Shown here in pieces: positions 1 through 60,632 of a stretch of 64,000 bases of DNA. The position numbers were made by a program, and so were the translations under genes. Position 1 is the first letter of the stretch; every line of letters starts with the position of its first letter. Origin of the DNA: Raillietiella orientalis (taxonomy: Eukaryota). Location of the stretch: the NCBI GenBank assembly GCA_036172245.1, contig JAYWIR010000124.1:1-64000 (forward strand). Reading direction: 5' to 3'. The notes beneath the pieces were generated by a model, which was not told the origin of the DNA, made no database searches, and saw only the letters and a program-made list of their open reading frames with translations.

Positions 1-108
1 CTTTCGATTTTCACCCGGATTTAGCCGGGCGTTTATTGTGAAATAAACTTTTACAAAGACGTGTGGTGGCTGGACCATTGCTCCAGCCACGCACGAAGAA
101 ACACAGAG

Positions 109-153
109 TCTGCCGGGTCAACGGTTCGCAGACCGGTACGGTCCACCACGGCA
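109..153 (-). promoter_or_regulatory. Conserved 3'UTR stem-loop (representative copy)
   Basis: CTGCCG...CGGT-CTGCGA-ACCG...CGGCAG, with equivalent hairpins in about ten other 3'UTRs. Confidence 0.6.
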
Positions 154-224
154 GCAGGGGGAAGGGGGAAAAACAAAAAACAAAACAAAAAAGAAAAGAA
201 AAGTTGGGAGGGTAAGGGAAGGGA

Positions 225-3200
225 TCACAGTTGCTGGTGGTGCCGTTGCATCCTTTGCAGGAAGCCGGCAAGCACCTTTTGTATTCCTGGATCCAGGTGA
301 GGCCATCGCGACGCTCTCCTCAGGAACTGGGAGGCTGGCTGGATGGCACCCTCGTCGCGTTGTCCTCCCGTAGCCTTGCTCCAAGCGGTGACAATCCCGC
401 GTAGGCAGCACAAAGCTGCTAACGAGGCCGCTGGCCGAAGGGCGTCGGCAACGAAGAGGGCTTTCAGTGGGTCCCTGGGGTTGCCGCTGGGGATTCCGAT
501 GGCCGCGGCAAAGCAAAACCAAAGGGGCCGAAGGGCAACACAATCCACTAGCAGGTGGGGTAGGGACTCCCGTTCCCCACACCTGACGCAATAGGGGTCC
601 ACCGCTCCCCAGGTCCAGTGGTGTTGGCGAACGTTGCATGGGAGTCCCCAGTGCTGCCACAAGAATGCCACTCCTGCCATTTTAAGGGGAGGGAGGAAGT
701 GTTCATGTGCACCGGGGGCCACTTCAGATGTTCAATGAAAATTTTGAGCAGCGCGCCCCAGCGCAGAAGTCCAATGGGAGGCGTACTCGGGGACGCAGCG
801 TCTGTTAACTGGCCCGTCTTCCACTCTCCTATCTTCTTCTCCTTTCCGGAGATTTTTACTGAAACCTTCCACTTCGCCGTAACATCGCTGTCCAGATCTT
901 CCATCAGGGAAAGCAGCGCAGCAACAAGATGGGTTCTTTCTGCCCACGCTCTCTTCCTTGGATCCTCCAGGATCTCGCGGAGCGTGCAACTGCTGTAACT
1001 CCCAAACAGAAACCTTCATTTCTGTTGGGAGCATTGCATGCCGAACTGTCCCCACGTTCGAACAGTTTCCTGCAACCAGGCACTACCGTTCAACGGGCGA
1101 CAGGTGAGCAATCCTGGGTTTTTTTGATACCGCGCAGCCACCCTCCGTAGCTGGAGTCCGCATCGGTTGACGCGGCGACGGAGTACAAGAAACGACGTCA
1201 GTCCCACCTTGCCGGTGGCTTGCTGGAGAAGGAGACGTGCAGGGACGCACCAACAGGTGCACCACAACTCTGGAACGAGTGCCGACAAGCGGAACCTGAG
1301 GTGAAGCTCCAGCCGCTCCAGCATCAAGAGGCCCAGACCACCATCCCGACGAGGAGCGCACAAGTCCTTTAAGCGGACTCGGGCCCACCCGTTGCCCCAA
1401 AGGGCGATACGGAGGTGGTCCTTTTTCAGCTTTTGAATTCTCTCTTTGGGGGAGCAAACAAAAAGCAGGGGGCGGAGGAGAGGAGCCGCGAACGTGTCCC
1501 AAACCGCGGCCCGTTCAGGCAGGAAAAACCTGCCACCACGGAACGGGCCGATCGCCGTCTCTACTTTTTGGAGGCAGCCGGACCAGGCTTCCGCAGGGTA
1601 GTAGTCCCCCAACGGCACACCAAGGTACTTGAAGTACCTCACCGTGGGGATCCCCAAACGGACCCAGTCCTGCTGCCCTGCCCACGCCGCACCAACTGGC
1701 ATCACGGACGACTTCGCCCTGTTCAACGTATGTCCGGTTCCCCGATGCAGCAGGTGGAAAAACTCCTCGACCGCCGAAGCCGGGGTGGACATAGGGAGCA
1801 GCAGCAGAAGGTCGTCCGCGTATGCTAAAACGGCGGCGTACCGGCGCAGTCGTGCGGCAGGTGCGCCAGTGTTCCCCTGTACGCTCTCAGTACCAACTCA
1901 AAGTAGGTACTGAAGAGCAAGGGGCTCAGGCTGTCTCCCTGCCGGATCCCACGACGCACCGGCACGCCGTGCACGGTCTGCCCGCTGAAAGTAACATTGA
2001 TGAGCGCGTCGCGCCAGCAGGAGCGCAGATAGGCCACTAATAAGGCCGGGAAGCCCAAGCGTTCTAGAAGCTACAGAAGGAGATTCTGGTCGACGCAATC
2101 GAATGCTTTCCGCAAGTCGATTGCGACCGCAAGGGCTCCCTCCCCCACCCGACCATTTAACCCCTTGCCGGCGCACGCACCGGAATTCCGGCTGCGCACC
2201 AAGCTCCTTTCATGTTAGAGCTCTAGCCAGGTGGAAGCGTGGAACAGTTTCGCCTCCATGCTTCGCCCGGGAACAGCATATGTCTGTTCCGGACTGACGA
2301 AGATGTTGGCAACCCGTCGAAGACGCTCTGCCCAAACCTTTGCTAGCAACTTGGCGTCCGTATTCACTATTGTGATGGGACGCCGGTTGTTCATGCTCCT
2401 CAGACCTCCTCCCTTAGGGAGGAGCCGCACCTTTGCCGAACGAAACGAGGCGGAAACGTCGTATGTTTCGCGTATCAGGAAGGTGAGTTGATGTAATAGG
2501 GGGTTTAGCTCAGCCGCGAAAGTTTGATAAAACTCCGCGGGCAGGCCGTCCTCCCCTGGAGCCTTTCGCCTCTTGAGCTTTCCGATGGCCGAGAGGATCT
2601 CGTCCATCGTGAAAGGCTCGTCGAGGGTCTTTCTCTGCTCCTCCCCGATCGCTGGAGCGCCTTTCGGAAGCAGGAGTCGTGAGACGTTCCCCTCGGGAGG
2701 TGCCCTGGCATACAGGGAGGAGTAGTAACTCCGCAGCTGGCCGCGGATTTAAGCAGGTGGCGAGTGCTCCTGGCCCTGATCGTCCAGTAAGCTGGCCGAT
2801 CCGGACTGCCAGGCTTGCCTCTCGGCTCCCGCTTTGTATTTTGCCAGCCTGCGGATGTCGGGGGTCCTGGCGTAACCACGGGCCTGCAGCTAGGCCCGTT
2901 CGTCACGGACCCCAGTCCCAAAACCCGTAGGTAGGCGGTGCAGAGGGAACTGGTCGCAGAACTCCTGGACCGACCGCTTGAAGCGGTCCCAATCCTGGAG
3001 TGTCCGCAGCCTGAAGCTCCGTATGAACGTGCGGAGATGTTCCGCCGCGTCCGGGAGCTTCAGCCAGTCCCCTGGGAGACGCCATGCTGACGAGGAGGGG
3101 CCCCTGTCGCAAGGATGGATCTCGAGGACTAGCGGGCGATGGTCGGATAGCTCGCACGGTAACTTGCCGCGCCTGCCCACGCGAGGGCACAGGTGCTCGT

Positions 3201-3804
3201 CAAGAAACACGTGGTCAATGCTGTATTCCATCCCCGGTGCACTGGCCAACAAATTACAGGTGTGAACCGCCATGCACACCTCGTTGACCAGGTCACGCTC
3301 GGGATTCTGCCCATCTGGTTTCAGGCGAACGTTGAAATCGTTTGCAACCAGATGGGCATCCCGCACGCCTGCTTCGGTCAGCCAGTCTCGCCGGATGGCA
3401 AGGAAAAACTCTTTCCTTGCCCTCCTGTTCATCAGGTCTTTGCCGCTCGGTGCGTACACGTTCGTGACGATCAGATCGATCGAGTCGGACCACCTGAGAG
3501 TCAGCTGGCCGACACGACCGTGATCGTCGAACCGCACGCCCCGAGCCGCGGCCTCGACGGCTGGTTGAAGAAGGTAGACGACACCGCAACTTTTCGCTCT
3601 CCCACACCTGTACCATAGCCGCCCTCCGGAGATCCGTCCGATCTCTTGCGCTTGTTCTGCAGAGATCACGTGGATTTCCTGCAGCAGCGCAAGGTCGCTT
3701 GACTCCAGAAGGGCGGCCATGTCTCCTCTCATGCCGGCGTCCGTTATGCCGTTCACGTTCCAAACGGCGATGCGCAGACGACGGCGGGAGGAGATTCCCG
3801 GCAT
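225..3804 (-). pseudogene. ORF2 (APE endonuclease + reverse transcriptase + C-terminal Cys/His finger), frameshifted, ~1190 codons
   Basis: ORF pieces 2890-3804 (WNVNG, LQE, NVYAP, DFN, SIDH, SDH), 2215-2607 (KAPGEDG, RPIT), 1825-2058 (GIRQGDSLSP), YADD at ~1812-1823, 1016-1792 (KYLG, GGLG), 548-904 and 225-722 (CxxC...HLLVDC). Confidence 0.92.
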
Positions 3805-5310
3805 TACTGCTGGGAAGATTAAGGTGTGGGAGAGCCCTCCTCTTGCGAGGCGGGCGGGATGTCCATAAGGGTTTCGGCCTTCTCAGGCACCTGTGGCACC
3901 TGTTCGGCCTCCACCCTCTCCATCCCCTCCGTGTCCGCGCGTGGGAGTCTCTCGGGCGACGGGTCCCGAGAGTTTTCCACGCTCATGGCACCCTCGCTTG
4001 CGGAAGCCATCTCTTCCCCTTCGACGGGGGAGACGAGCTTCCTTGGCTTTGTGGACTTAAGTCCAGCCTTCTTGCGCGGAGCCCTGGAAACGGAGGCTGC
4101 GCTTCCGGCCTCCACCTCGGGGTCGGAAGTGGGGGACTCTCGAGGGGAGGCCGGACGCCTTACGGCCTTCTTGCCAGCCTTGGAGGGTTCTGGCTGCAAC
4201 GAAGCTGCCAGCTCCTCCGCGGCCTGCGCAAAGGCTACGTCATCGATGGTGGTGTCGATGACGGACGCCGCCGCCGGCTCGCTCCCCTCGCTGTTGACTG
4301 TGTCAACAGAGGGGAGGTCGTTGGTAGCGGCGAGTTCTTTCCGGCAGCGTTAGGCAACATCGAGAACGCGTTCGACAACGACGCTGCACTCTTTAATTAT
4401 CGCGCTACCCTGCTCTTTCTTCTTCTGTTGGTAGGCGATTTTCTTTTCCATCCTCCTCTCCTTCTTTGATTTTTTGGCCGTTGCCAATTGCCACCCAGTC
4501 TCCTGGCCGGCTCCCTCAACTTTTCCGGCGTTGGTCGCCAGGGTCTCGGGTGCGGCCTGGGTCTTTGGCGCGGGTGGCACAGCCTTCGCGGCAGCTTTCG
4601 CCGCCACCCTTTTCTGCAGAAGCCGGACGCGTTTTTTAAGGTTTCTCTTGGAAACCACCCGCACTGCTGCTTTTAGGCACACCTCCCTCGTGTGACTTAT
4701 TGTGCCGCATACTTGGCACTGCACATTGGGACACCTCTTTTTGAGGTGGCCCGACATATTGCAGAAGCCACAGTATTTCGGCTTCCCCACATACCAGAGG
4801 TCGACGGATTCGCCTTCGACCACCAGTTTGTGGGGTAGAGTGCAGCCCCCCCGAACGGTCACGCGCGCAGAAGTGAGGCCGTGTTGCAGCCCCGTGTAGT
4901 CCTCGAAAGGACTAACTTTCGTCCACTGCGCGTGGACCGTTCCGTATTCCTCCGACGCGGCGCGAACCTGTTCCTTGCGCATCCGCGCGGTAACACCTAA
5001 AAGGTGGAACACCAGGCTGCGGTCCACCGTAATAGGAAGGAGCCTGCGCGTCCCCATCACAACGGGGGTTTTAAGCAGTCGTTGGGCCAGTTCTGCATGT
5101 TTGCAGATGACCTCAACGTACTGACCCCCGCTGCGGATGGTCATAGCGCTGAGCTCCTCCTCTTTCACATCCAGAGCGCGCATGCCCTTCGAGAAGGCGC
5201 GCGCGCTCTCTAAAGAATATAAATTGCCTACCTTGTAGAACAATGAGAGGCTGTACCCCTCCTCTACATAGGCCGACAATTCCGCTCCGGCTGCAAGCGA
5301 TGGCGCCGAC
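3804..5310 (-). pseudogene. ORF1 gag-like nucleic-acid-binding protein (type A), in-frame stop at 4350
   Basis: CGFCNMSGHLKKRC and CQVCGTISHTREVC knuckles. ORFs 4350-5279 and 3819-4199 are in the same frame. Confidence 0.88.
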
Positions 5311-6540
5311 TGTCCTCGATCCTCGTGGCCTACCAGCGCAGCCTCTGCAACTGTGGCCCCGATTTGCGCCAGATGGTCGCCCTGATGAGGGAGAATACCT
5401 GGATCTCCTGCATCCCCGCGAACTGCACTGCCTGGCTTCAGGAGTCAGCTTCCGCGTAGGCTAAGACCAACGGCACGAGCGAGGCGGAATACAACTGCCT
5501 ACGACGAGGACCGTAGGCTCGACAGCCGCTGCAGGTTATTATCAACACGCCCCGGAAGTTTCTGGGGGCTTCTTTCAGCCCCCTTCCCCCTGTTCTGTCC
5601 TCCCTTGAAAACACTAGGAGCAGCAACGAGCTGGCATCGTGGGAAGTGTCCTGCCTCATCCGAGGCAGGAAAAAACCTTCAAAGGCGTGAACGACTCGGG
5701 AGCTCACGGACGCTTGCACCCCGAGCGTCCCGCCTCACGGACTTGCGCGCTGAGGAGAGCTGCTCGCAATACCTTTGGACGAGGTGAAGTGGCCCCCAGC
5801 GTGTTGGGATTGCGGCACACTTCCGTTGAAGTGGCAGGAGACGGCGTTGCTATTTCTGCACTGGGGACTGTTAAGCAGAGCACGCCTGTCTCACTGGACA
5901 CTGGGAAATGTGGATGCCTGCTGTGTCGAGTGCGGAGAAAGAGAAACCTTCCCGCATCTCACCCTCGAGTGTGTCGCCCTGGATGGACTCTGGAGTCGAA
6001 TCGCCCCAATCCTCTATCTTCCAGTAGGCGACTCTAAGGAAATTTACCGTCGCCTCTTTCTGCGTGACGGCCTGTGCCCCGCTGCGTCTCTAGCAGTCCT
6101 CTGCTGCGTGCGCGGCATTGTGCAAAGGTGGCACGCCAGAAGAAGAGGCCCAAGATGCAGGGACGCCATCCACTGGACGACGATCTCTTTAGAGACGGCG
6201 ACAAGGTGGCGTCTACCTTTCACAATAAAAACTGAACTTGACTGCATCCTCAACAGGATGCGGAGGACCGACCCAGGCGCCCAGTGATTCCTTCCCTGCC
6301 CCGTCTCTCCCCACACAACTGTTTTCCTCCTCGTTATCTCTCTTTTTGTTTATTTTTGTTCTAGTTTTCCTTCCCCATGCGCCTCGGGAATGGACCTAAC
6401 CGGTCTACGCACCGGCAACAAACACGTCAACCAAGGTGGAAAAACCAAGTGTTTCCCACAATTAACTTTTGAAAGACGTTATTATCTAATTTTTGTAAAA
6501 AATTAGAATAATAAATGCCCCGGCATATCCGGGTGGCAAA
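5311..6540 (+). mobile_element. 5'-truncated LINE fragment: ORF2 C-terminus plus 3'UTR
   Basis: ORF 5775-6287 (KWQE..LHWGL..CVECGERETFPHLTLEC). Homologous to 18850-20090. Ends AATAAAT...CCGGGTGGCAAA. Confidence 0.88.
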
Positions 6541-11067: not shown

Positions 11068-11280
11068 TTGTCACCCGAGTACGCCCGCAACGTTTATTGA
11101 AAAAACTCTACATAAACGTGGTACGAGGCTCCACTAACGGCCACACAACACCGGACCTGCCGGGACGCTGGGACGCAGCCCGGCGTGACACTCCTCGGCA
11201 GTGGAGGGGGATAGGGATCAAAACAAAAAGAAAAATAAAGATAAGGAAAACAAAAAAGAGTTTGGAGGGAGGGGAAGGGA

Positions 11281-14200
11281 TCACGTTCTACGTAGAGGAG
11301 GGTCCATCCTTCGCAGGATGCCCTCTAGGTCCATCTTCATGTTTCCCAGATGGGGCCATCTCGCTGCTCTCCGCATGAAGCAGACCGCATACGGGATGAC
11401 ATCCCTCACGTTGGCATCCACTCCTTCGTAGCGAATGTCGCTCCATGCCGCCACGATGCCCCGGATGCAGCAGAGGGCTGCGAGGGCTGCGGCGGGCTGC
11501 AGGGCGTCCCGCACGAATAGGGGCCGAAGAACGTCTCTGGGCGCGCTGCCCGTTGGGAGCCCGAAGTTCGTCCCGAACTGTTCCCACAGGAGTCGGAGGG
11601 CAGCACATTCAACTAGTAGTTGGGGGAGCGATTCTTTTACTTCACACCTGGCACACTCAGGCCTTACACTGCCCCGCGTCCAGTGGAAGCGGCGCGCGTT
11701 CTTTTCCTTGCCTGCGATTCGGCAGGAGACTTGCCACTTTGGCTTGCGGCCGCTCGTTAAAGCCCTTCGTAGGAAGGGCAGGCTCGAAGCTAGGGGGGTA
11801 GTCTCCGCCCACGTGCTCTTGGCGGGACACTGCAGAGTAGTCCGCAGTGTGCAGCAGGCGTTGGGGCCGAATCGCAGGCGGTTCCATTCCGGGGAAGTCT
11901 GGAGGTTCAGCTTGGCCCACGTCGCAACGGATTCCTCCAGCCAGGCGGAGGAGTTGGCGGGGCTGCATACCGTCCAGCCGTTGTCTCTGACCAGGGCTTC
12001 CATGCGCCCAAGGAGAAGGCCGCATCTTCTCACCTTCCTGCCGGAGCACAGAAGGTACGACGCGAGTCCTTGCGTCCTTGACACACGGCTGGCGAGGATG
12101 CGGGCCGGAACGCACCAAGGGGTGCTCCATGACTTTGCTGCGATGGCAAGGGTGTGCCATCTCAGCTGTATGTCCAGGCGCTCCAGCGTCAGTAGGCCGA
12201 GACCGCCGTCCCGACGAGGAGCGCATAAGTCATCTAGAGGCACACGTGGTCTCCCGCTGCCCCAGAGGGCGATGCGGAGTAGGTCCTTGGTCCTCTCTTT
12301 AACGTCACGGAAGACGGGGCACACAAAAAGCAGGGGGCGGAGGATGGGAGCCGCGAAGGCGTTCCACACCGCGGCCCGTTCCGGCAGAAGGAACTTGCCT
12401 TCCAGGAACGGGCCGATTGCCAACTCTACCTTCTGGAGACGACCTGACCAGGATTCTGCGAGGCAGAAGTCCCCCAGCGGGACACCCAGGTACTTCAGGT
12501 ACTTGGCCGTGGGGATCCCCAAGCGGATCCAGTCAGGCCGTCCGACGCACATCGCACCCACCGGTACGACCGACGACTTCGCCTTGTTTACCCGCAGTCC
12601 AGTCCCACGACTTAGCAGGTCGAAGAAATCCTCGACTGCGGCTGCCGGGGCGGACATTGGCAACAAGAGCAGAAGATCGTCGGCGTACGCTTCTACGGCG
12701 GTCGTGCCGGGGCACGAGCTCGGCAAGGGGGCCAAAGTCGCCCTGTACGCTCTCAGCACCAACTCAAAGTAGGTGCTGAAGAGCAGGGGACTGAGGCTAT
12801 CGCCCTGCCGTATGCCCCTCCGCACCGGCACGCCGTACACCTGTTGGCTGGAAAAGCAGATGTTAATTATGGCGTCGCTTTAGCATGAGCGAAGGTAGGA
12901 GAGAAGGGAGGGTGGGAAACCCATGCGACCCAGGAGCTCCAAAAGTAGCTCCTGGTCAACGCAGTCGAACGCCTTATGGAGATCGACCGCGATCGCTAGG
13001 GTTCCCTTCCCAGCCCGGGTGTCCATTCCCAGCCCAACTGGCGGCCCCAATGTGGGGTTGCCAATCTTTCCGCCAGTTTCATTCAGGCAGCGTTGCACAT
13101 GGAACCATGTGCACGCGAAGAACAGGTTGGCATTTATACTTCGCCCGGGAACAGCGTATGTCTGCACCGGGCTAATTATGGAGTCTGCCACCTGTCCTAG
13201 ACGCGAAGGCCACAATCCAGCGATCAGCTTGGCGTCCGTATTCACAATTGTGATCGGACGCCAGTTGCCTTGGGATCTCAGGTCTCCTCCCTTCGGGAGG
13301 GGCCTCACACGGGCTGACCGAAACGAGGCGGGAACGTCGCCTTCGTCTCGGATCAGCCCGGTCAACTGGAGCACCAGGGGGGCCAGCTCAGTCGCGAAGC
13401 ATTGAAAAAAATTTGCAGGCAGGCCATCCTCCCCTGGCGCCTTACGCCTCTTAAGCCTTTCAATACCGGCGAGAATCTCACCGGTGGAAAAAGGCTCGTC
13501 GAGGCTGATCCTCTCCTCCTCCCCTATTGCCTGGCCTCCGTCTGGAAGCAGGAGCCGCGAGGCGTCCCACACTGGGGGTGCCCTAGCGTAAAGAGAGGAA
13601 TAATACTGCCGCACGAGGTGCCTGATCGCGGGTGGGGCCGATCGCTCCCGGCCCTCGTCGTCCAGCAAGCTGGCCGACCCGGATTGCCAGGCTTGGCGCT
13701 CGGCCCCGGCTCGATATTCGGCCAGGCGACGGACATTGGGGGTTCTCTGGTACCGGCGGGCCTGTAAATAGGCCCTGTAATTCCCAGTACCCTCCCCAAA
13801 TTCGGGGGGCAGGCGGTGCAGGGGGAATTCCTCGCAGAACTCGCGGACCGAGGCCTTGAAGAGGTCCCAATCTTTGAAACTGCAGAGGGTGACGCCTCTC
13901 AGGAATTCGCGAAGGTGTTCCTTCGCTCCTGAGACCCGCGTGCAGTCCCCAGGCAGCCGCCACGCCCTGGACGGGGGTGCTTTGTCGCGCGGGCAAACCT
14001 CGGCGATGATCCTGGAATGGTCCGACAGCGTCGACGCAACTTTTCCTGTTGGCCGACCCGCGAGCACAGGTCGACATCCAGGAAGAAGTGGTCGATGCTG
14101 CGGTCCATTCCCTCCGCGTCTGCCAACAAGTTGCGCGTGCGCATGGCAGCGCACAACTTGTTGCCCCTGCGTTCTTGTGCTTCGGGCTCACCTGACAGCA

Positions 14201-14674
14201 GACGGAGATTGAAGTCTCCAGCTATCAGGTGTGCCTTCCGCACATTCGTGTCGGCCAGCCAATCGCGCTTCAGGGTTTCCAGCAGCCTGGTACGGTCGCT
14301 GTATCCTACTTTTCCTCTCGGGGCGTACACGTTCGTGACGATCAATTCGATCGAGTCGGACCAGCTGAGAATCAGCTGACCGACCCGACCGTCGTCATCG
14401 AAGCGTACGCCCTTCACGGCAGCGTCGATGGCCGGCTTCAGGAAAAACGCGTCCCCACAGGTGTTGCGGGCGCCGCATCGCCAATACAACCGAACCCCGC
14501 GATCGTCTCGATCTCCTGGGCGTCTGCCGCGGTGATCACGTGGATCTCCTGCAGCAGGGCCAGATCGAAATCACGCAGGGTGTCGGCCGTATCTCGTCTG
14601 TTGCCGTCGTCACGCAGCCCGTTGACGTTCCAACTGGCCACGCGGATTCGACGGCGACAGGCGAGCCCAGGTGT
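11281..14674 (-). pseudogene. ORF2 APE-RT-Zn finger with two frameshifts, one stop and an in-frame C-terminal deletion
   Basis: ORFs 14438-14641, 13899-14489, 12880-14154 (KAPGEDG, DLHKAFD) and 11281-12840 (QGDSLSP, YADD, KYLG, CARC). Confidence 0.92.
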
Positions 14675-16422
14675 TATTCCTGGGAAATCGGCTGTGCGGC
14701 GTCCACCACCTGTTGGGGCGGGACGCTAGGTGGAGCAGGAGGGACAGGTGCCTCGAGCACGTGGTCCCCCTGCTCTATCGGTAGCGGCGCGTCGAGCGGG
14801 TCACCCTCCGGTGGGGTCGAGCCTACCTGTTGGCCCTCCTCCATACGGTTGGGCTGTACAGGGGCCGCGCCGGCAAGGAGGACTTCGCCCCCCTGCTCAC
14901 CCTCCTCCATGGGGGTGGCCTGCTCGGCGACTTCCGCGCGTGGGATTTCCCCCTCCGGGATTCCCACGCTGCCGTCGGCTTCCTGCTTCTCCTCCTCGCT
15001 CGTGGAGGGGAGGCGCCTCCTCGGCTTTTGGGACTTGCGTCCCGTCTTCCGGAGGGGTGCCTTCGACGAGGAGGATGCACTTCGGGCCCCCAGGTCGCAC
15101 TCACCTGCGGGGGCCTTCTTCGGCGGAGCCGGCCTTTGCACGGCCTTGCGTGAGGGGTTCTCACGCTCGGCCAGCGTGGCCGCGAGCTCCTCCGCCGCTT
15201 GCGCGAACGCGGCGACCTCGCTTTCGGCACGCGCTTCGCGCGGCTCACCCTCTGTGCAAACAGAGGGTACGTCTTCGCGAACCTCGGGCGCGGCGGAAAC
15301 GGCGTGGGAAGGCTCGTCGCCCCGGGTGGCAGTCTCGGGAGCGGCTATGCGCTCCAGTGCCACCGTACACTCCCGCATGGTCTTGCAGCGCGGCCCAGGT
15401 TTTTTCGCCTTGCCGGCTGTCTTGCGCTCTTTGCTCTCCGCGGGTGGGAGTTTCCTTGGCTTTCTAGCCCCTACAAGCTGCTATCCCTCTTCGCCTTCCA
15501 CCGTTTCAGATGGTTTATCCTCTGGTTTACGCGCCGGAGGTTGAGGTGTTGGCAGCTTGTGCTGGCCCTTTTCTACTTTAGGTCTAGAGACCTTTGAAGC
15601 GCGTTTCCCCTGCGCTTTTTTCGCAGCAGGGAAAACCGGGGTGGGGCGTTTGGGGCACACGCGCCGAACGTGGCCCCGCTCCCCGCACAAATGGCATTGT
15701 ATATTGGGACACCTTTTACGTAGGTGTCCCACGGTATCACAATACCCGCAATACCGGGGCTTCCCTACATACCACAGGTCGACGTTTTCTTGCGCCACCT
15801 GTAGTTTGTGGTAAAGCCCACAATTCTCCCTTACGGTGACCCGCGCTGCAGCCTGCCCACCAAAAAGGCTATCGAAGCCGTCGAAAATGGAGGGTTTCGG
15901 CCACAGTGCGTGCACCTCACCGTACTTTCGTAGTTTCTCACCAACCGCTGACCGCGTCATGCGGCTGGTGATGCCAGTCATGTGGACCACCACGGAGCGG
16001 TCCATTGATACTGGCAGGATCTTGCGGCCGTCTACGTTCAGCGGCGCATGGATTAGGCGGTGAGCCAGAATGACATCTTTGCAGACCACCTCAACCCGCT
16101 GCCCGCCGCTGAGGACGGAGAGGCCGTCCAGATCCTTCTCAGTGACATTCGCGTCCTTTAACGCTTTGCTGAAGGCGCGCGCTGTCCGGCCGTCGAACAA
16201 GTTGCCTACCTGGTAGACAAGCGATGGCTTGTACCCGGAGGCCTTGTATGCGGCCATCTTCGCCATGGCTTCTGCGCTGGGCTCGGCCACCATGGCGCTC
16301 CATGTCCTCGGCGTGGCCGGGGATGATTCCGGGGCCGCTGCCCCTGCTCCAGTAGGCTGTGGGGGCGAACTAGCCTCCCCCACTCCCACCTCCATCTTGG
16401 TGTCCTCTGGCGTCGTGGCCAT
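14674..16422 (-). pseudogene. ORF1 gag-like (type D), single premature TAG at 15481
   Basis: CGYCDTVGHLRKRC and CHLCGERGHVRRVC knuckles. ORFs 15481-16452 and 14674-15378 are in frame. Confidence 0.9.
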
Positions 16423-16506
16423 TGGACACCGACGATGTACACAAAACATCACTCACAAGAAAGCGCTTTCCTACTACTCTTTGAGGAGTGAAGGAAAAAC
16501 ACGTCC

Positions 16507-17958
16507 TCCAACTGGCCTTGGAGGAGTCTGGCTGCAACGATGCAGCCAGCTCATCCGCCGCACTCTCGAAGGCGGCGTCATCGATCACGGTCTTGATGAC
16601 TTACGCTTCCGCCGGTTCGCTCCCCACGCTGTTGACATTTTCAACAGTGGGTTGCTCGTCGGTAGCAGCGATTTCTACCTTGCGGCGTTCGCCGGGGACG
16701 CGTTCCACGACGACGCTGCATTCTTTTAAATTCTCGCTAACCTGCTGCTTTTTATTTTGGTAGGCGAGCTTTTTTTCAATTCGTCGTTCTTTCTTCGACT
16801 TGTTTTTCTTTTTCGCTGTGGCTTCTTGCCATTCCAACACCTGACCGCTTTTGTCGATCTTTTCGGCATTCGTTGCCGGGGTGTCGGCTGAGGCCTGGAC
16901 CACGGGAGTGGGTGGCACAGCTTGAGCGGCAGCCTTCGCCGCCAGCCTTTTCTGTAGCAGCCGCGCGCGTTTTTTTAGGTTCCTCGCGGAAACCACGCGC
17001 ACAGCGGATTGCGGACACACTTCCCTTGTGTGACCCATTGTCCCGCATACCAGGCACTGTACGTTGGGGCACCTCCTTTTGAGGTGTCCCGACGTGTTGC
17101 AGAAGCCACAGTATTTGGGCTTCCCCACGTACCAGAGGTCGACGCTTTCTCCGCCGACCACCAGTTTCTGAGGAAGGGTAGAGTCCTCCCGAACGATTAC
17201 ACGGGAAGCCGTGAGGCCGCACTGAACTCTGGTATAGTCCTCGAAAGGACTAGGCTTGGTCCATACTGCATGGACCGTGCCTTCTTTTCCCAACGCGGCG
17301 CGTAACTGTTCTTTCCGCATCCGCGCGGTAACTCCTAAAATGTGGACCACCATACTGTGGTCCGCCGTAACGAAAGGAACCTGCCTGTCCCAATTACCAC
17401 GGGGGTTTTAAGCAGACGTTGGGCCAGATCTGCACGTTTGCAGATCACCTCTACGTACTGCCCCCCGCTACGAATGGTTATAGCGCAGAGCTCCTCCTCT
17501 TTAACATCGAGAGCGCGCATCCCCTTCGAAAAGGCGCGCGCACTCTCAGCAGAATACAAATTTCCTACCTTGTAAAATACTGATGGGTTATACCCCTCTT
17601 CCACATAGGCAGATAATTCCGCCGCGGCTGCAGGCGATGGCGCCGACACGACGGCGCTCCACGCCCGCGCTGCAGCGCAGATTGGTTTTGTGGGGGCGAA
17701 CGCCCCCACCTCCTTCGCCACTGAATGCGACGTTGCCGCCGCCTCCTTGCACTCCACCTTCTCTAGAGGCGACGTTTCCGCCGCCACCTGGCACTCCATT
17801 TCTTCAGGAGGCGACGTTGCCACCGCCCCCTGACACGCATTGGTGGTCGTGTCAGGCATTGCTGCCTGATCGACCACCACCACACACGGAGCCTACAACT
17901 AGGGACGGTTCCCGGCACGAGGAGCACCAAGGAAACACGTCCGCTCTAGCCGACGTAG
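16507..17958 (-). mobile_element. LINE 5' part, subfamily A: 5' end plus frameshifted ORF1
   Basis: ORFs 17335-17883 and 16601-17353 closely resemble 4350-5279. GGACGTGTTT at 17933-17942. Confidence 0.9.
17728..17830. repeat. 42-bp tandem repeat (~2.5 copies) in the ORF1 N-terminus
   Basis: GCGACGTT recurs every ~42 nt. Peptide VATSPPEEMECQVA / AETSPLEKVECKEA / AATS. Confidence 0.7.
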
Positions 17959-20090
17959 AGCTTTCGACTGCGTCGACCAGGAGCTCCTTCTGAAGCTCCT
18001 GGAACGCTTGGGATTTCCGACCGTCTTCCTGGCCTACCTGCGCTCCTGCTGGCGCTTCACGTTCATCAATATTAATTTCAGCAGCCGGCACGTGTTCGGC
18101 GTGCCGGTTCGTCGTGGCATCCGGCAGGGTGACAGCCTCAGCCCCCTGCTCTTCAGCATCTACTTTGAGTTGGTGCTGAGAGCATACAGGGAGACTTTGG
18201 CAACCTTGCCGAGCTCGTGTCCCGGCACGCCTTCCGTGTCGGCCTATGCCGACGATCTTTTGCACCTGCTTCCCGGGTCCACCCCGGCATTGGCGCTCGA
18301 ACATTTCTTCGAGTTGCTATACCGTGGGACAGGCCTCCAGGTGAATAGGACGAAGTCGTCGTTGCTTTTCACCGACTCGACGAGGGCCGGACGGTCGGAC
18401 TGGATCCGCTTGGGGATCCCCACGGGCAGGTACATCAAGTACCTTGGCGTTCCTTTGGGGAACTTCTGCTCTGCAGAAGCCTGGTCCGACCGTCTACAAA
18501 AGCTGGAGCTGGCGATCGGCCCGTTCCGGGACTGCATGTTCCACTTGCAGGAACGGGCCACGGTATGGAACGCTTTCGCTTCCTACTTTTTGTGTGCCTT
18601 ACCCCGTACCAAATCAGGACACGGACTAGGGGCCTTATACGGAAAGCCCTCTGGGGCAACCGGAGGCCTCGCTTCCGGCTCAAAGACTAGTGCGCTCCAC
18701 GCAGGGACGGTGGACTTGATCTTCTGACGTTGGAGCGCATGGAGCGACAGCTCCAATTCAGAAAACTTGCCCTTGTGGCAAAGTTTTGGACAGCACCCTG
18801 GTGTGCACCGGCAAGACTCCTTGCTCACAGGGCAACCGGCTGCTTCGGATTGACTTCAATCCTGGTAGGCAACGAACGCAGCCTGAACCATTGTGGTTAT
18901 CAGCTGCGGGATTTGGTTGCTCTGATGAGAGACATCATTTGGATCTCCTGCATCCCAGCGGACTGGACTACCTGGCTTCAGGAGTCCGTATCCGCATGGG
19001 CGAAGATCAATGGCACCAGCGATGAGGACTTATCCTGCCTCCGCAGAGGGAGGCACGCTGGTCAGCCACTCCAGGAGATCGTTTCCAACCCACGGAAACT
19101 TCTGTGGGCTTCCTTCACCCCCCTTGCCCCAGTGCTGCCCTCCCTCAGGGAAGTTCGGGACAGCCACCAACAGGCATCGTGGGAAGTGTCCTGCCTCATC
19201 GGAGGCAGGAAAAAATCACTGAAGGCGTGGACGCCGAGGGAACTAGCGGACGCTAGTACCCCGAGTGTCCCGCCGAACTGACTTTTACGCTGGGGCGAGC
19301 TGCTCGATATACCTCCGGAGGAGGTGAAGTGGCCCCCAGCGTCATGGGACAACGGCACCCTTCTTCTGCAGTGGCAGGAGACGGCGTTGCTTCTGCTCCA
19401 CTGGGGACTTTTAAGCAGAGCACGCCTGTCTCGCTGCACAACGGCCAATGTGGATGCTACTTGTGCAGAGTGCGGGGAAAGGGAGACTTTTCCCCACTTG
19501 ATTCTGGAGTGTGTTGCCCTCCGCGAAATGTGGGACAGACTCTCGTCGATCCTCAACATTCCGGGGGGTAACCCGAAAAATTTATTCAGACGCCTCCTGA
19601 CGCAAGACGGCTTGCCAGTCAACGGGAGCGTAGCAGTGCTCTGCTGCATACGCGGTATCCTGGAGAAGTGGACCGCGTCTAGGAGAGGAAGGACCAGCCG
19701 GAATGCCATCCACTGGGCAGCGATCTCCTTGGAGAAAGCGTGCCGTTGGCGCCGACTTCAAACACATTTGCCGGCACTTGTTCGCATCCGAAACCGGATG
19801 CAAAGGCCTGCTCACGGCGCACCGTGATCCCCTCCCTTCCTCCCCCTCCCCAAAAAACACTGCCCTCCAGACGTTTTTCTTTTTTGTTTTTGTTTTCTTT
19901 CATTTTTCCCGTCCCGGCGCCAGTGAAGGACCTTATCGGCCTCCGGGTCGGTAAGGACAAGTGCTACTGAACTTCTGCACTGAACTTCTGACGTCGTAAA
20001 GAGAAAAATTTTAACAACATAGACTTGATTACAAAATTTTGTAATGTAAAAATTTCAGTAATAAAAGCCCAGGCTTACCCGGGTGAAAAA
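17959..20090 (+). mobile_element. LINE 3' part from the RT AFD motif to the 3' end
   Basis: ORFs 18008-18727 (QGD, YADD, KYLG), 18730-19281 and 19324-19827. Ends AATAAAA...CCCGGGTGAAAAA. Confidence 0.9.
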
Positions 20091-21943: not shown

Positions 21944-24423
21944 CACTCGATTGAAATCTCCCTCTATCAGGTGAGCCATTCGCACGTTCGTGTCCGCCAG
22001 CCGGTCGCGCTTCAGCGTCTGCTGCAACCTAGTACGGTCGCGGTACCGCTGGTTACCGCTGGGGGCATACACGTTTCTGACGTTTAAGTCGATTGAGTTG
22101 GACCATTTGAGAATCAGCTGGTTGACCTGACCGTCGTCATCAAAACGCACGCCCTTCAAGGCAGCGTCGACGGCTGACTTCACAAAAAGCGTGACCATAC
22201 GGATGTTGCAGGCGCCGCTTTGGTAGTATAACAGACCCCACGCGATCGATTCGATCTCGTGGACGTCCACCGCAAAGATCACGTTGATCTCCTGCTGCAG
22301 AGCCAGGTCGAGCTCACGCAGCGTGTCGGCTGTATCTCGTTTGGTGCCGTCGTCGCGCAGCCCGTTGACATTTCAACAGACCGCGCGGTTCCGACGGCGA
22401 CAGGCGAGCCCAGGTGTGAATCCTGGGAAAGTGGCATTGCGGTGTCCGCCAACTCTTGGGGCGGGAGGCTAGGAGGGAAACGGGTCATGCGTCGAGAACC
22501 TGATCCTCCTCCTCCATTGGTGTCGGCGCCTCAGGTGTGTCGCCCGAAGGTGTGATCGCGCCTACCTGATCGCCCTCCTCCATAGAAGCGGGTTTCTCGG
22601 GTTCGTCGCATGCAGGGTTGGCTTCGTTACGCTGCTCACCCTCCTCCATAGGCGTCGCCTGTGCGCCAGCGTCCGCGCATGGAGGATCCCCCTCCGGGGC
22701 TGCCACGCTGCCGTGATCTTCCTCTTTTTGCTCCTCGCTCGAAACGGGAAGGCACCTTTTGGGCTTCTGGGACTAGCGTCCTGCCTTTCGAGGAGGTACC
22801 TCCGCGGAGGAGGATGAATTTCCGGCCTCCCGGTCGGACTCACTTTTGGGAGGCATTTTCTTCGGTGCCGGCCTGCGGACGCCCTCGTGCAACGGGGTTT
22901 CGCGCTCGCCAAGCGTTGCTGCAAGCTCCTCCACCGCTTTTTCGAAGGCGACGTCCTCGCAAGCGGTGAGCCTTGCCGCGGGCTTTTCCGCGACCTGATT
23001 GAGCGCGGCGTCCTCGCTGGCGGCAAACGTTGCCGCGGCCTCCTCCGCGACCTTACCGAGCGCGGCGTCCTTGCTGACGGCGAACGTTGCCGCGGGCTCC
23101 TCCGCGACCTTACTGAGCGCGGCGTCCTCGCTGTCGGCCCGCGAGTTTCGCGTCTCACCCTCTAAACGTAGAATGGGTTCGTCCACGCGAGTACCGGTCG
23201 CGACCTCAGCAGCTGTCTGTTGAGCAATGCCGTAGGCGGCCTCGGCAGGAACGGCTAAGCGTACCAATGCCACCGAGCATTCCCGGAGTTCTTTAGAAAG
23301 CGGCGCGGCTTTTTTCTTTTTGCCGGCAGTTTTCTTCTCCGACTTTTCTTCTGCCAGAATTTTCTTGTTTCCTCTCTTAGCCTTAACCAACTGCCAACCC
23401 TCCTCCACTCTCGCGTCTTCGAGAGTATTTTCTTCCCCCGCCTTTGCGGGAGGAGCTGGGGCTGGCGGCTGGGAACGGCCGTTTCCCTGCGTTGGTCTTT
23501 CGACCAGTTTCGCACGTTTTCCCTGTGCTTTTTTGGCAGCAGTGGGCACCAAGGTAAGGCGCTTGGAGCACACGCGTCGAACGTGCCTTTACACCATGCA
23601 TAAGTGGCACACAATGTTCGGGCACCTTTTCCTAAGATGCCCTACTGCATTGCAGTAGCCACAAAATTGGGATTTCCTTACTTACCAGACGTCTATCGCT
23701 TCTTGGCAGACCTCCAGCTTGTAGGAAAGCGCACCGCCCTCTTTTACCGTGACTCACGCCGCGGCTTGGCCCCCGAAAAGGCTATTCTAGCTTTTAAAAA
23801 TCGTAGGCGTCGGCCACAACGCGTGCACTTCGGCGTGCCTGCGCAACTGATCACCAACCGCTGACTGCGTCACTCGGCTGGTGGTCCCGATGAGATGGAC
23901 CACTACGGAGCGATCCATCGTCACCGGCAAGATCTTCTCACCATCAACGATCAGCGGATCGGCGATCAGGCGTTGGGCCAAGGTGATATCTTTGCATACC
24001 ATCTCGACCCGCTGACCCCCGCTGAGGACGGAGAGGCCGTGCAGATCTTGCTCTCTGACGTTCGCGTTTCGCCGCGCCTTCGTAAAGGCGCGTGCAGTCC
24101 GCCCATCAAACAATGGACCTTCCTTGTATACCAGCGAGGGTTTTTACCCTGCTGCCCGATAGGCCTTCTGCTCTGCCAAGGCTTCGGCGCTGGGCGCTGC
24201 CACCATGGTACTCCAAGTCCTTGTCTGTAGCGGCGGGGACGAATCCGGGGCGGATGCCCCTGATTCAGTGGGCTGTGGGGACGAACAAGCCTCCCTTACG
24301 CCTACTTTCATCGCAATGCACTCTGGCATCGTAGCCATCGGACACCGACGATGTGCAAGCACAAAATGCTCAAGTAAAAACGCTCGCCTTGCCACGCAGG
24401 CGGAGCGACGGAAAAACACGTTC
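21944..24423 (-). mobile_element. LINE 5' part, subfamily D: degenerate ORF1 plus APE N-half, ending at GDFN
   Basis: Homologous to 14200-16506. 5' GAACGTGTTTTT at 24412-24423. Confidence 0.88.
22917..23133. repeat. 57-bp tandem repeat (~3.8 copies) encoding EDAALxKVAEExAATxAxS
   Basis: CCGCGACC at 22988, 23045 and 23102, a period of 57. Confidence 0.85.
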
Positions 24424-24437
24424 GCTCACGATGAAGA

Positions 24438-27365
24438 GGGTTTGGGGAAGGAACTCGCAACCTAAATGAGTATTTATACGCCCGTCTTTATGCAAGGACC
24501 CTCAACGTCCGTCGCCTGGCCGAGTATCGAGCTGGGACTGAGCAGCAAGCTTGGCAGTCCGGGCCGCTTACCCTGCTGGACGACCAGGACCGTGAACACT
24601 CGGCCCCGTCAGCAAATCGACATATGCTGAGAAAATTTTATTCCTCACTGTACGCCAGGGAGCCTCCTGAGAGGGACGTATCGCGACTGTTGCTCCCGGA
24701 GGGATCCCCGGCCTTAGGGGAGGAAGAGATGAAAAGCCTCGACGAACCTTTTACAACCGGTGAAATCCTAACCGCGATTAAAGGGCTCAAGAGGCGGAAG
24801 GCCCCAGGGGAGGGAGGCCTGCCCGCGGAGTTTTTTTAAAGCTTCGCGGCAGAGTTGACTCCTTTGGTGCACAGATTGATACAGCTGATCCGGGAAGAAG
24901 GCGATGTTCCTGCCTCGTTCCGGTCAGCTAGGATGAGGCTTCTCCCTAAAGGAGGAGACCTCCGTATTCTAACCAACTGGCGTCCGATCACAGTTGTGAA
25001 CACGGACGTCAAGTTGGTCGCGAAACTGTAAGCTGCGCGGCTCGGACAGGTAGTTGAATCCGTAATTAGCCCGGAGCAGACTTACGCTGTTCCCGGGCGA
25101 AGTATAAAAGCTAACCTGTTCTTCGCCAGCAGATGGTTCCATGTACAAGACGAAATGAAAGAACGCAAGGGATCTCTCGAAAACCCCTATTTAAGGGTGA
25201 CCGCTGGTCAGAATGGAGACAGCCGGAAGGGCAAGGGTGCTCTAGCGATCGCAGTTGACCTTCATAAATCGTTCGACTGCGTGGACGAGAAGCTCCTCCT
25301 AGAGCTTCTGCATCGAATGGGCTTTTCTCCTACTTTAACGGCGCACCTGCGCTCTTGCTGGCGCGCCGCGATAACAAACCTCTGTTTCAGAGGACAGAAC
25401 GTGTACGGCGTGCCGGTGCGCTGCGGGATTCGGCAGGGCAAAAGCCTCACTCCCCTGCTCTTTAGCACTCACTTCGTATTGGTGCTGAGAGCACGCAGGA
25501 TTACTTTGGCTGCCTTGCCAGCCTCAAGTTCCGGCACGCCTGCCGTGTCCGCAAATGCCGACGATCTAGGGCTCCTGCTTTCATTGTCCTCCTCGGCAAC
25601 GACAGTCGAACATTTCTTCGACCTGCTAAGCCGTGGGACAGGGCTACGGGTCAACAGGGCAAAATCGTTGATAATGGCAGTTGGAGCAACGTGGGTAGGA
25701 CCGTTTAACTGGATCCGCCTGGGGATCCCGACGGGCACACATCTGCAGGACCCTGGCGTTCCGCTAGGGGACTTCTGCCCGTCAGAAACATGGTCAGGTC
25801 GTCTTCAGCAAGTGGACTTGGCGATCCGCCCGTTCCTGTAGGGGCAGTTCCACTTGCCGGAACGGGCCGCAGTATGGAGCGATTTTGCGGCCCCCATCCT
25901 TCGCCCAATACTTTTCGTTTGCCCCGTCCCCATGAATATGAAAAAAAGGACAAAGGACCTCCTGCGACCTTTGGGGCAAGGGGAGTCCCCTAGACCCTTT
26001 GATGGACTTGTGCGCTCCGCGTCGTGATGGTGGTCTTGGTATCCTGACGCTGGAGCGCATGAAAATTTGCTGCGATGGCGAATGTTCGCCATCGCAGCAA
26101 AGTTGTGGAGCACCCCGTGGTGTGTTCCTGCCCGCTTCCTTGCCAGATGTGCATCCGGAACGGGAGAACTCGCATCTCTTCTTTTATGTCGTGGAAGGAA
26201 GACAAGAAGATGCGGCCTTCTCCACAGACGTGCAACCCCTCTGGCGAGGGAGAATGCGTGGATGATATGCAGCCCCGTCAACTCCAGCTTATGGCTCCAG
26301 AAACAGTTAACACGCGGACGATAGTGAATCAGAAGTGCCACGAGAGGTGGAATAGCCTACGGCGAAGCAAATACTCCCGCTGCACTTTACGCGAGATCCT
26401 GGAGTGTCCAGCCAGAAGAACGTGGGCAGACACGACCTGCCTGGCTACGGTGCTGCCCTTCCTACGTAGGGCCCTTGTCAGCAGCCGGACGCCGAGGTGG
26501 CAAGTCTCTTACCTTATGAAAGGCAGCGAACAATTATTGAGCGGTTGGACAATGGTTCATCTGGCGGACACCACAACCCTGAGCGTCCTTCCCAAAGGAC
26601 TTCAAGGAAGGGGCGAGCTGCTCGGCATCACGACTAATGACCTGAAGTGGCCCCCAGCGATAACAGGAACAAGCATCCTTTCCCTGAAACGGCAGGAGTC
26701 GGCGCTGATGCTGTTGCACTGATGACTCCCAACCAATGCCCGCCGTCACCATTGGACTGGGGAAACTGTGAAACCAAACTGAGCCCGGTGTGGGCAACGT
26801 AAAATCCTCAGGCACCTTTTAGTTGTCTCTGCTGCTCTCTGGCCTCTGTGGGAACGTTTCGGTTCCTGCTTAGGGATCCTGGAAGGTGGCCTTCCCAGAG
26901 ACGTTTCTCGGCTCCTCTTTGTGCGGTACGCCCTGCAGCCAGCCGCTGTAATAGCAGCTCTCTTCTGCGTTCGCGGTATTGTGGCAGCTTGGAGTGGATC
27001 CAAAGAAGCAGAGGATGTCAGCAAAAAAAATGCCATGGAGTTTGCAGCTCGCTTTCTGCGAACAGCAACCCGATGGCCTTTACTGGGAAATCAGTACAAG
27101 GACCTCGTCGGCATCCTGGAAAGGATGGAAGCTCCGCGAAACGGGCAGTGATTTCATCCCGGCCCTCCAATTGACCAGTGTTTTCACTGTTTGTTTTCCT
27201 TTTATTTTTGTTTTTCATTTTTTCAACCTATCCGTTGCCGTGAAGTGTCAAGTTGGTCTAAGCACCGACTACCCGACATCACCAGAGAACTACTGGCCGC
27301 AGCAAGGCCTTGTACTACAAAGACTGTTAGTATTTTAATAAACGCCCTGGCATTCTGGGTGAAAA
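24438..27365 (+). mobile_element. LINE 3' two-thirds (linker, RT, Zn finger, 3'UTR), heavily degenerate, D-like C-terminus
   Basis: ORFs 24624-24839 (KAPGEGG), 25155-25841 (DLHKSFD, NADD) and 26921-27151. Ends AATAAACG...CTGGGTGAAAA. Confidence 0.9.
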
Positions 27366-32362: not shown

Positions 32363-32399
32363 TGTAACATTATCTGAGTTTCTGATGAGGCGCCTCACC

Positions 32400-38760: not shown

Positions 38761-39230
38761 GTTGCCACCCGGTCACAGAGGGCCATTTATTATAAAGAAA
38801 ACAACCGATTCGGTAAAAGGGCCCCTCTACGGCTAACACAACAACGGCCCTGCTTGCTTGTTGGTGGGCAGACCGACTCTACTTTCCACAGCAGCGGACG
38901 TGGAAAGAGGAAAAAACAAAAAAAAAAATAAAGCAAAATTAAATAAAGAAAATATTTGGAGGCTCGGTAAGGGATCTCTACCCGCTTGATGCAATGTGCA
39001 TTTACTGCAGGATGTCTTCGAGGAACTTTATCATATTCGTTTATAGTTGGGGCGATCGTGTTGCTATCCACATGAAGCGAACTGCATATCCGATCACGTT
39101 CCTGTAGTAGTCATCACCTTCTTCGTCACATATTCTCCAGGCGGCGATAGTACTGCGGAAACATGAAAACGCTGCTACCGCTACGGCTCACTTCCAGGCG
39201 TGCCGCACGAAGAGGATCCGAAAAACAAAT
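38761..39230 (-). mobile_element. Short LINE 3' fragment (end of ORF2 plus 3'UTR)
   Basis: Decayed FRILFVR..AAW..YAVRF translation, U-rich tract, hairpin, and AATAAAT...CCGGGTGGCAA end. Confidence 0.75.
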
Positions 39231-39450
39231 CTGCAAACTCAAGGAAAACTTCCACGCTACGACCCTGAGTGTCCCGCCGGGAGGATTAAAGAGATGAGGC
39301 GAACTCTTCAGCACCCGAGGGAATAACCTGAAGTGGTCCCCGATATTCACATGATCCAGGATTCATCCCCTAAGCTGGCAAGAGTCAGCTCTTACGTTAT
39401 TGCAATGGGTCTTTCCGGTAACTCACGCCGCTTCTTATGGCCGCTGGGAA
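39231..39450 (+). mobile_element. Small ORF2 C-terminal fragment
   Basis: Decayed ATTLSVPP..NLKW..WQESAL..RRFLW, homologous to 26560-26760. Confidence 0.7.
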
Positions 39451-60621: not shown

Positions 60622-60632
60622 CGTACAGCGCA

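Follow-up and report, generated by a model that had tools for sequence, protein, structure and literature searches.

Recurrent antisense joints between one LINE subfamily and the K-A-F-D codons of sibling reverse transcriptases in Raillietiella orientalis

INTRODUCTION

Long interspersed nuclear elements (LINEs) that choose their integration site are known from ribosomal, small nuclear and transfer RNA genes; others target telomeric or microsatellite repeats, and one DNA transposon also serves as a target. The target-specific LINEs with an apurinic/apyrimidinic endonuclease (APE) include members of the Tx1 and R1 groups: Tx1L lies in the Tx1D transposon, Keno, Dewa and Mutsu in small RNA genes, and R1 in 28S rDNA. 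Here we describe a LINE cluster of Raillietiella orientalis in which elements of one subfamily, designated A-type, repeatedly meet the reverse transcriptase (RT) gene of other LINEs in antisense orientation, at the alanine codon of the RT motif K-A-F-D. The sample is one stretch of 64,000 nucleotides (GenBank assembly GCA_036172245.1, contig JAYWIR010000124.1, positions 1 to 64,000 of the forward strand), hereafter the window, and the events in it are few.

Like the Tx1 and R1 elements, the A-type element is an APE LINE found repeatedly at one short sequence and in one orientation. Its putative target is likewise multicopy, and a read-through-primed start on target bases (TCGA) is conceivable. 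Unlike theirs, its target would be coding DNA of sibling LINEs, namely RT catalytic motif A. Its specificity is not strict, since one of the two visible 3' junctions lies elsewhere, and no intact A-type insertion with both flanks is seen in the window.

In green algae, the L1-clade elements Zepp and ZeppL form one cluster per chromosome by inserting into existing copies, according to two reports (PMC3446292, PMC8226300). As in those accounts, the clusters described here consist of LINEs only, exceed their surroundings in G+C, at ~0.58-0.63 against 0.38-0.50, place LINE beside LINE throughout and hold many 5'-truncated copies with their own 3' termini. The same reports describe nested arrays of 3' ends and name no codon or antisense rule, whereas the A-type joint stands antisense at a fixed codon. 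Several subfamilies coexist here, many pairs lie head to head, and no split host is present.

Other relevant systems join two pieces of complementary DNA (cDNA). Variants of human L1 twin priming include recombination between two growing cDNAs, according to one preprint (bioRxiv 10.1101/2024.08.27.596794). An inverted 5' part followed by a direct 3' part with its own terminus is common to that process and to our locus, where one pair of copies fits it fully. The A-type joints differ in that their arms belong to different lineages, their breakpoints lie 2-3 kb apart and the joint recurs at one base. Template-switch chimeras of L1 (U6-L1 and others; PMC4476161, PMC13174262) also combine pieces of several RNAs, set end to end in a single integration event, as two same-strand joints in the window may do; the chimeras known are same-strand, with a switch to the second RNA's 3' end, which leaves antisense joints at a fixed codon unexplained. 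A limited literature search, not aimed at absence, gave no mention of a preferred site in the catalytic-motif codons of sibling RTs.

How, then, did these joints form? A first-pass annotation of the window, made from its letters, had proposed that A-type LINEs use a conserved RT motif of their relatives as a landing site. We show that the two clearest joints arose as separate events. The way they form is not yet settled, but their recurrence points to sequence-directed integration of LINE into LINE.

RESULTS

Two A-type 5' ends stop at the same alanine codon

About 21 LINE pieces were positioned by blastn and tblastx on a reference made of copy 1 plus the additional 5' end of copy 7; reference coordinates are approximate. 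The subfamily labels A, B, C and D were coined in this analysis. At 17959/17960 (J1) and 40251/40252 (J2), the complete 5' end of a minus-strand A-type element meets open reading frame (ORF) 2 of a plus-strand LINE, as the first-pass annotation had read both loci. The plus-strand arm opens GCT TTC GAC (A-F-D) at 17960 in J1 and GCA TTT GAC at 40252 in J2. Both arms begin at the Ala codon of K-A-F-D and reach their own 3' ends. On the reference, both start at base 3514/3515, and the minus-strand arms end at bases 1 and 7. A Pfam scan of the 148 ORFs of at least 120 aa from the 64-kb window matched RVT_1 in the J1 arm (17903-18724, plus strand, E 4e-13, profile positions 77-204), a domain without its N-terminal third. 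The sequence ACACGTCC ends at 17942 and at 40234. Its distance from the Ala codon, exactly 17 nt at both loci, had also been reported correctly; the two 17-mers are identical at 10 of 17 positions.

The left arm of J1 (copy 7, 16506..17959, minus strand) is an A-type 5' end covering reference positions 1-1454. It comprises the 17-nt terminus (17943-17959), a 5' untranslated region (UTR) of ~85 nt, ORF1 with one frameshift and ~95 nt past ORF1; its conserved 5' motif is GGACGTGTTT (17929-17942, minus strand). The right arm, e8 (17960..20090, plus strand), is a C-type ORF2 running from reference 3514 to the 3' terminus ...GGGTGAAAAA, with one frameshift and one in-frame stop in ~1.55 kb. In J2, the left arm (copy 13, 39806..40251, minus strand) is an A-type 5' end covering reference 1-531, its 17-nt terminus at 40235-40251. 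The right arm, e14 (40252..~42364, plus strand), extends from the KAFD Ala codon of ORF2 to the 3' terminus; it represents a lineage basal to the A clade and is heavily decayed (seven in-frame stops in 1.7 kb). In the part of A-type ORF1 that codes for the N terminus, a unit of ~42 nt occurs about three times in tandem in J1 (17700-17830) and once in J2 (40100-40125), and this difference in repeat number appears as an 84-column gap in the J1/J2 alignment.

Both full-length A-type 5' ends in the window lie at the KAFD Ala codon (2/2). None of the four non-A 5' ends with the same terminal motif (copies 4, 6, 9 and 10) does. The window contains seven head-to-head LINE junctions, with truncation points at reference positions 1232 (copy 5), 1942 (copy 19), 2697 (copy 11), 3514 (e8), 3514 (e14), ~4400 (e2) and 5008 (copy 17). 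Only the junctions with a full-length A-type partner coincide in truncation point, and they do so to the base. By a rough estimate, the chance that two among seven joints coincide in ~5 kb is ~21/5000, or ~0.004. Six of the eight RT copies keep an uninterrupted KAFD; filled and empty sites therefore coexist. The string A-F-D-L-V (GCNTTYGAT) also occurs in APE domains, at 53586 and 7484; it is unbroken in both and is matched by the KAFD regular expression.

Could the 17 nt, or the A-type 5' UTR, be diverged RT sequence from upstream of KAFD? We rejected this idea: local alignments of the left side with that part of RT were no better than shuffles, the observed score being reached by 12-292 of 300 shuffles in 10 comparisons. 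An 8-base identity, GCTCTAGC, with e11 is probably chance. Nor are the 17 nt common to all LINE 5' ends, because the non-A ends stop 0-14 nt past the motif.

The two joints arose separately

The alignment of the J1 and J2 loci continues straight through the joint. The arms on either side of it tell different histories. In a tree of the RT-to-3' region (2013 columns), e8 is sister to e2 (100/100), the right arm of a further composite, J0, and e14 groups with the A-clade ORF2s e1, e15 and e19 (99/99). A constraint that places e8, e2 and e14 in a single clade lowers the log-likelihood by 17.5 units (approximately unbiased (AU) test, p=0.012). In a tree of the 5' UTR and ORF1, the three A-type arms are united in one group (100/100); the paths among them are 0.28-0.41, and every other ORF1 is at least 1.03 away. 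Between J1 and J2, the path is 0.34 for the A-type arms and 0.86 for the RT arms. ORF1 is the faster part (A versus B types, 1.03 against 0.66 for the RT half), so a common history should have left the left arms more distant than the right; the opposite was found. The first-pass annotation had stated that the host elements differ, and the plus-strand arms indeed fall in different, well-supported clades. It had also named congruent guest and host trees as grounds for refutation. The trees are incongruent, with A-type paths within the range above and RT paths of up to 0.86.

We computed the ratio of nonsynonymous to synonymous change (omega) by the Nei-Gojobori method on tblastx codon pairs, passing shifted frames and neutral simulations through the same pipeline as controls. 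Read in frame, the RT pair e8-e14 has an omega of 0.41 and the pair e8-e2 one of 0.27. Shifted frames gave 0.87-1.5 and neutral simulations 0.56-1.25, mostly 0.8-1.0; the simulations use a simple substitution model, of which the shifted-frame control is independent. The RT arms diverged under frame-specific purifying selection. Because an RT without its N-terminal half cannot be under selection, this divergence preceded truncation. Nowhere, the neighbourhood of the joint included, is e8 nearer to e14 than to other copies.

The joint appears again, with a third kind of RT arm, in X1, the sole public sequencing run found (15% of sampled words; short contigs). One contig joins A-type base 17942 to base 12975 on opposite strands, and 12975 belongs to the K codon before A-F-D in e6, the B-type RT of copy 6. 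This evidence is one contig, with 34 letters on its shorter side, placed at 80% likeness. X1 gave nothing usable besides the single joint 12975/17942 and does not show the sequence left of window base 1.

We conclude that J1 and J2 arose as separate events and are not copies of one old junction. The A-type 5' end has been joined antisense to the KAFD Ala codon at least twice independently, and probably three or four times.

The topology of the A clade differs between regions. The APE region (9608-11078 vs 59885-60634) gives (e5,e19)+(e1,e15) and the RT-to-3' half gives (e1,(e15,e19)), which hints at recombination among LINE lineages.

A third composite and the A-type 3' ends

Copy 1 (8..5310, minus strand, reference 306-5621) is the A-type arm of J0 and has its own 3' terminus at base 8. 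From that base onward the window reads as the reverse complement of the conserved LINE 3' terminus (AATAAA, hairpin, GGGTGAAAA). At 5310/5311 the copy meets e2 (5311..6540, plus strand), the 3' part of a C-type ORF2 from reference ~4400 to the 3' end. J0 aligns with J1 on both sides up to a gap equal to 17650-18847; judged from this alignment, it may be either a J1-type joint minus 1.2 kb or a further, different joint.

The seven bases beyond the 3' terminus of copy 1 (1..7, plus strand) are CTTTCGA, a candidate half of a target-site duplication. As the first-pass annotation had noticed, they are identical to 17961-17967. All seven agree with the C-type KAFD site, down to its GCT Ala codon, which is found in e8 and the divergent e21 and not in e1, e6, e11, e14, e15 or e19. 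A convincing duplication flanking any composite was not found in the window.

The other visible A-type 3' junction belongs to e19 (56976..60649, minus strand), an A-type copy 5'-truncated at position 1942. Its 3' end, at 56979, follows ...AAACTCGA of the plus-strand LINE copy 18 at position ~2625, not KAFD. This agrees with the earlier observation that the end lies elsewhere and shares TCGA. The TC of this junction can be aligned to bases of the host. At each of the two A-type 3' junctions that are visible, the element comes directly after YTCGA on a coding strand, either that of a LINE or that of unseen DNA.

A cluster built of LINEs

The G+C content is 0.54-0.63 across three blocks (~1-27.4 kb, 38.7-46 kb and 53-64 kb) and 0.38-0.52 in between. 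The Pfam scan found RVT_1 in seven ORFs, six of them exceeding the curated cut-off, and Exo_endo_phos in three, one of which exceeds it (60054-60647, minus strand, 25.1 vs 24.5 bits). The four zf-RVT matches (21.3-24.8 bits) are all under the curated cut-off of 27.5. A single ORF1 matches zf-CCHC (21.5 vs 20.8 bits), and CxxC...HxxxC strings are readable in A-type ORF1. APE precedes RT on the same strand in copies 1, 6 and 19, the order of an APE-type LINE. These domain matches identify the G+C-rich blocks as APE-type LINEs with an ORF1. The three clusters are built almost wholly of such elements, encoding ORF1 (with a candidate CCHC region), APE, RT and a candidate zf-RVT and belonging to several subfamilies.

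The 3' terminus of every element consists of AATAAA, a short G+C hairpin and GGGTGAAAA, and a poly(A) tail is absent; the A-type 3' terminus reads ...CCGGGTGAAAA. In blocks 1 and 2, minus-strand elements whose 5' end is present start with the motif GGACGTGTTTTTCC, ~85-100 nt before the ORF1 ATG. At up to three mismatches the motif has 15 matches against 6.9 expected, and four among the matches listed are LINE 5' ends. The J1 copy, with four mismatches, was read directly. A 14-base match within copy 6 (14441-14454) was rejected as a 5' end.

A word-index search with the e6 ORF gave nothing among longer proteins and, among proteins of near length, only P0001 (65% identity) and one distant match. 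With P0001 as query, all further relatives, which were proteins of ticks, frogs, fishes and plants, were at most 32% identical, and no named protein exceeded 30% identity. A phmmer search of 1.84 billion representative proteins with the ORF spanning J1 returned P0001 and P0087 as the two close relatives. Both carry an unbroken ...DLRKAFD, and the protein libraries gave no additional example of the joint. The LINE family is almost unsampled in these libraries. A first metagenome scan found nothing; a second, with an alignment as query, gave 49 loci of 22-43% identity that are other LINE families and were not used.

The surroundings of the joints are themselves LINEs. Copy 6 (11068..16506, minus strand) is a near full-length B-type LINE; its 5' terminal motif begins right where the J1 guest is cut off, at reference position 1454. 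At the 3' end, copy 6 adjoins copy 5 (9608-11078, plus strand, positions 1232-3009), an A-clade piece that is sister to e19 (100/99). Beside J2, copies 12a and 12b (38762..39805, minus strand) are two tandem 3' fragments of B-clade LINEs; they occupy the place expected for the rest of the J2 guest or for the left half of its host, and non-LINE DNA lies beyond. Copy 12b was tested as the 3' end of the J2 guest and dropped. Weak tblastx matches at 38835-38879 and 62123-62298 were judged spurious. Copies 10 and 11 (21950..27365) form a pair in which a minus-strand B-type piece (positions 1-2291) is joined at ~24439 to a plus-strand B-type piece (2697 to the 3' end). Each is sister to copy 6, both arms thus being of one lineage, and the pair looks like an ordinary 5' inversion by twin priming.

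The truncated partners of the head-to-head pairs reach their own 3' ends, except copy 5. All three A-type composites have outward-facing LINE 3' termini at both ends (8/6540, 11068/20090 and 38762/42364). Arm decay in the three, in disruptions per kb, is 1.06 vs 1.29, 0.96 vs 2.49 and 5.4 vs 4.0; the counts are small. In J0 and J1, the hosts are no younger than the guests.

Same-strand joints also occur, at 16506/16507 (copy 6 after copy 7, position 1454) and 21942/21943 (copy 9 after copy 10, position 2291). They resemble template switches in which the 5' end of one RNA was followed by an internal site of a second RNA, or insertions that lost the downstream host part. Where a LINE 3' end abuts another LINE, six of eight junctions are opposite-strand (6540, 11068, 20090, 42364, 53761 and 56976), the exceptions being copy 12b on 12a and copy 16 on 15. 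The pattern may reflect a preference of LINEs for antisense integration into other LINEs; with so few junctions it does not reach significance.

Between the LINE blocks lies a second repeat family (27365-35872 and 46324-51465) with a G+C content of ~0.45-0.47. It is present three times, in copies of 3.3-5 kb that are 83-90% identical, and two of these are an inverted pair (27365-30691 vs 35811-32498). Pfam matched none of its ORFs of 120 aa or more. LINE copy 11 adjoins the edge of this family with its 3' end, at 27365/27366.

DISCUSSION

What brings A-type 5' ends to one codon of other LINEs? Any answer must start from what is established: the junctions themselves, their independence, the fact that only A-type partners take part and the antisense arrangement. 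We favour, with a probability of roughly 0.42, an integration in which A-type elements are directed to LINE DNA by its sequence. A LINE already in place would be nicked on its coding strand behind ...TTCGA, and A-type RNA would be reverse transcribed from the nicked end. The full-length cDNA would then be joined 7-8 bases upstream, creating the duplication GCTTTCGA and splitting the host RT within catalytic motif A. The guest would be the later arrival, and the other halves of guest and host would have been removed by subsequent LINE insertions with deletions, typical of the whole cluster. Site-directed integration would explain the recurrence, the antisense rule and the 7-base flank.

Several observations weigh against this reading. 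At neither J1 nor J2 do both target halves flank the element with a duplication of fixed length. For the DNA left of window base 1, which is the guest's 3' side at J0 and lies beyond the window, the first-pass annotation predicted plus-strand RT sequence ending D-L-x-K-A-F; at J1 and J2 such sequence is not seen on the 3' side of the guest, and no plus-strand RT ending K-A-F, beside the guests or elsewhere, was found in the 64-kb window. Copy 5, the one plus-strand piece to the left of J1, was considered as the missing left half of e8 and rejected since it belongs to the A clade and ends at position 3009. With no host left half at either joint, two separate secondary deletions must be assumed, together with one tolerated off-target insertion. 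The guests are short (1454 nt in J1, ~530 nt in J2), both being 3'-truncated into B-type LINEs. Nine 3'-truncated LINE pieces lie in the window (copies 3, 5, 7, 9, 10, 13, 15 and 18 and an APE fragment at 53122-53762), and none continues past the interrupting element; simple nested insertion, with split hosts as in Zepp, is therefore not seen anywhere in the cluster. Head-to-head pairs are a general feature of the cluster, non-A subfamilies pairing at other ORF2 positions, and the similar decay of the arms within each composite also fits co-insertion.

The target site raises further objections. The duplication proposed by the first-pass annotation keeps its 7-base match, but the support is seven bases at the window edge only, and they belong to J0, whose 5' joint is not at KAFD. 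The first two of these bases would also fit the continuation of a D-type ORF broken at 6541. One of the two visible A-type 3' junctions is off KAFD, sharing TCGA with it; if A-type elements merely prefer YTCGA, the residual flank match has a chance of ~1 in 32 by our estimate. Finally, the 17 nt are of unsettled origin; non-A 5' ends stop 0-14 nt past the same motif.

The joints might instead come from co-integration resembling twin priming, an account that we regard as possible, if rather unlikely. Both strands of one target break would prime reverse transcription on two different LINE RNAs, with template switches, and the finished A-type cDNA end would anneal next to the KAFD of an opposite-strand LINE cDNA or of resident LINE DNA. 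Neither arm would be a host; the arm that begins its RT at KAFD would be the 5'-truncated partner of the same event. The absent host halves and short guests would require no additional events, and the outward 3' termini of all three A-type composites, the equal decay of their arms and the same architecture with other subfamilies at 1232, 1942, 2697 and 5008 all agree with it. The process seems to be active in the family, judging by the apparent 5' inversion of copies 10 and 11; the same-strand joints of copies 6/7 and 9/10 resemble template switches; and for human L1, twin priming with switching and recombination of two growing cDNAs are described in the preprint (bioRxiv 10.1101/2024.08.27.596794). 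The account does not, however, explain a base-precise hot spot: a same-base joint three times, with A-type partners only. The A-type terminus is identical to the codons before KAFD over only 1-2 contiguous terminal bases (3-4 matches in the final 5), by the shuffle test the left side does not resemble RT upstream of KAFD significantly, and no other 5'-truncated copy starts at 3514. The CTTTCGA flank would be a coincidence, and a convincing duplication is missing around every composite. Arms made from one RNA, with breakpoints near each other, describe copies 10 and 11 (2291 vs 2697); at J1 and J2 the arm trees are incongruent and the breakpoints far apart (1454 vs 3514 and 531 vs 3514).

Other explanations fare worse. 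One old junction could have been copied as DNA, or as a retrotransposed chimeric transcript, with later decay or gene conversion making the copies differ. The alignment through the joint and the 10/17 agreement of the 17-mers suit such copying, and left arms of variable length (5.3 kb, 1454 nt and 531 nt) with complete right 3' ends are what 5' truncation of a plus-strand chimera would leave. Yet the right arms do not form one clade (AU p=0.012), the distance between left arms is ~2.5 times smaller than that between right arms despite the faster ORF1 (1.03 vs 0.66), and purifying selection in frame acted on arms that are non-functional once truncated. Moreover, e8 is almost intact, and e8 and e14 show no local excess of similarity at the joint. 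These data already largely refute copying, which we consider improbable. Still less credible is that the antisense RT piece belongs to the A-type element itself, as a long 5' UTR or as a 5' transduction that accompanies every retrotransposition. The joint does always accompany A-type 5' ends, and all three right arms reach a LINE 3' terminus; a non-coding antisense leader, however, should be neutral and monophyletic, the tree and omega disagree, and e14 clusters among genuine ORF2s of the A clade (99/99). That the joints coincide by chance, or that the repeats were misassembled, is just as hard to believe. The region is highly repetitive, and only X1, with its sparse word matches and short contigs, matched it. 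Against this, two diverged loci share an identical base-precise joint, an independent X1 contig repeats it, and coincidence of two joints in seven has a rough chance of ~0.004. The probability that remains beyond these readings is left open.

The first-pass proposal of an RT motif as landing site is thus upheld in part: independent antisense joints stand at one codon, but no split host is seen and one of the two 3' ends lies elsewhere. That the relatives are inactivated, as it also proposed, is an inference. A stronger form of site-directed integration, which we offer tentatively, is that the A-type element is a 'hyperparasitic' LINE whose machinery recognises the DNA coding motif A (K-A-F-D) of sibling RTs and inserts antisense. 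Such an element would gain a safe, ever-renewed multicopy target and would knock out its competitors. The target could not easily escape, because a change in the motif kills the RT.

If the joints were made by joining of cDNAs at a hot spot, they would show that events of the twin-priming type can use two different LINE RNAs, with a strong site preference. That outcome would bear on how LINE-only clusters are built, possibly centromeric ones as in some green algae. If instead site-directed integration is correct, targeting of catalytic-motif codons in other LINEs would represent a new kind of target choice. It would also be a clean case of competition between transposon lineages within one genome, in which selection on the enzyme of the victim keeps the target constant.

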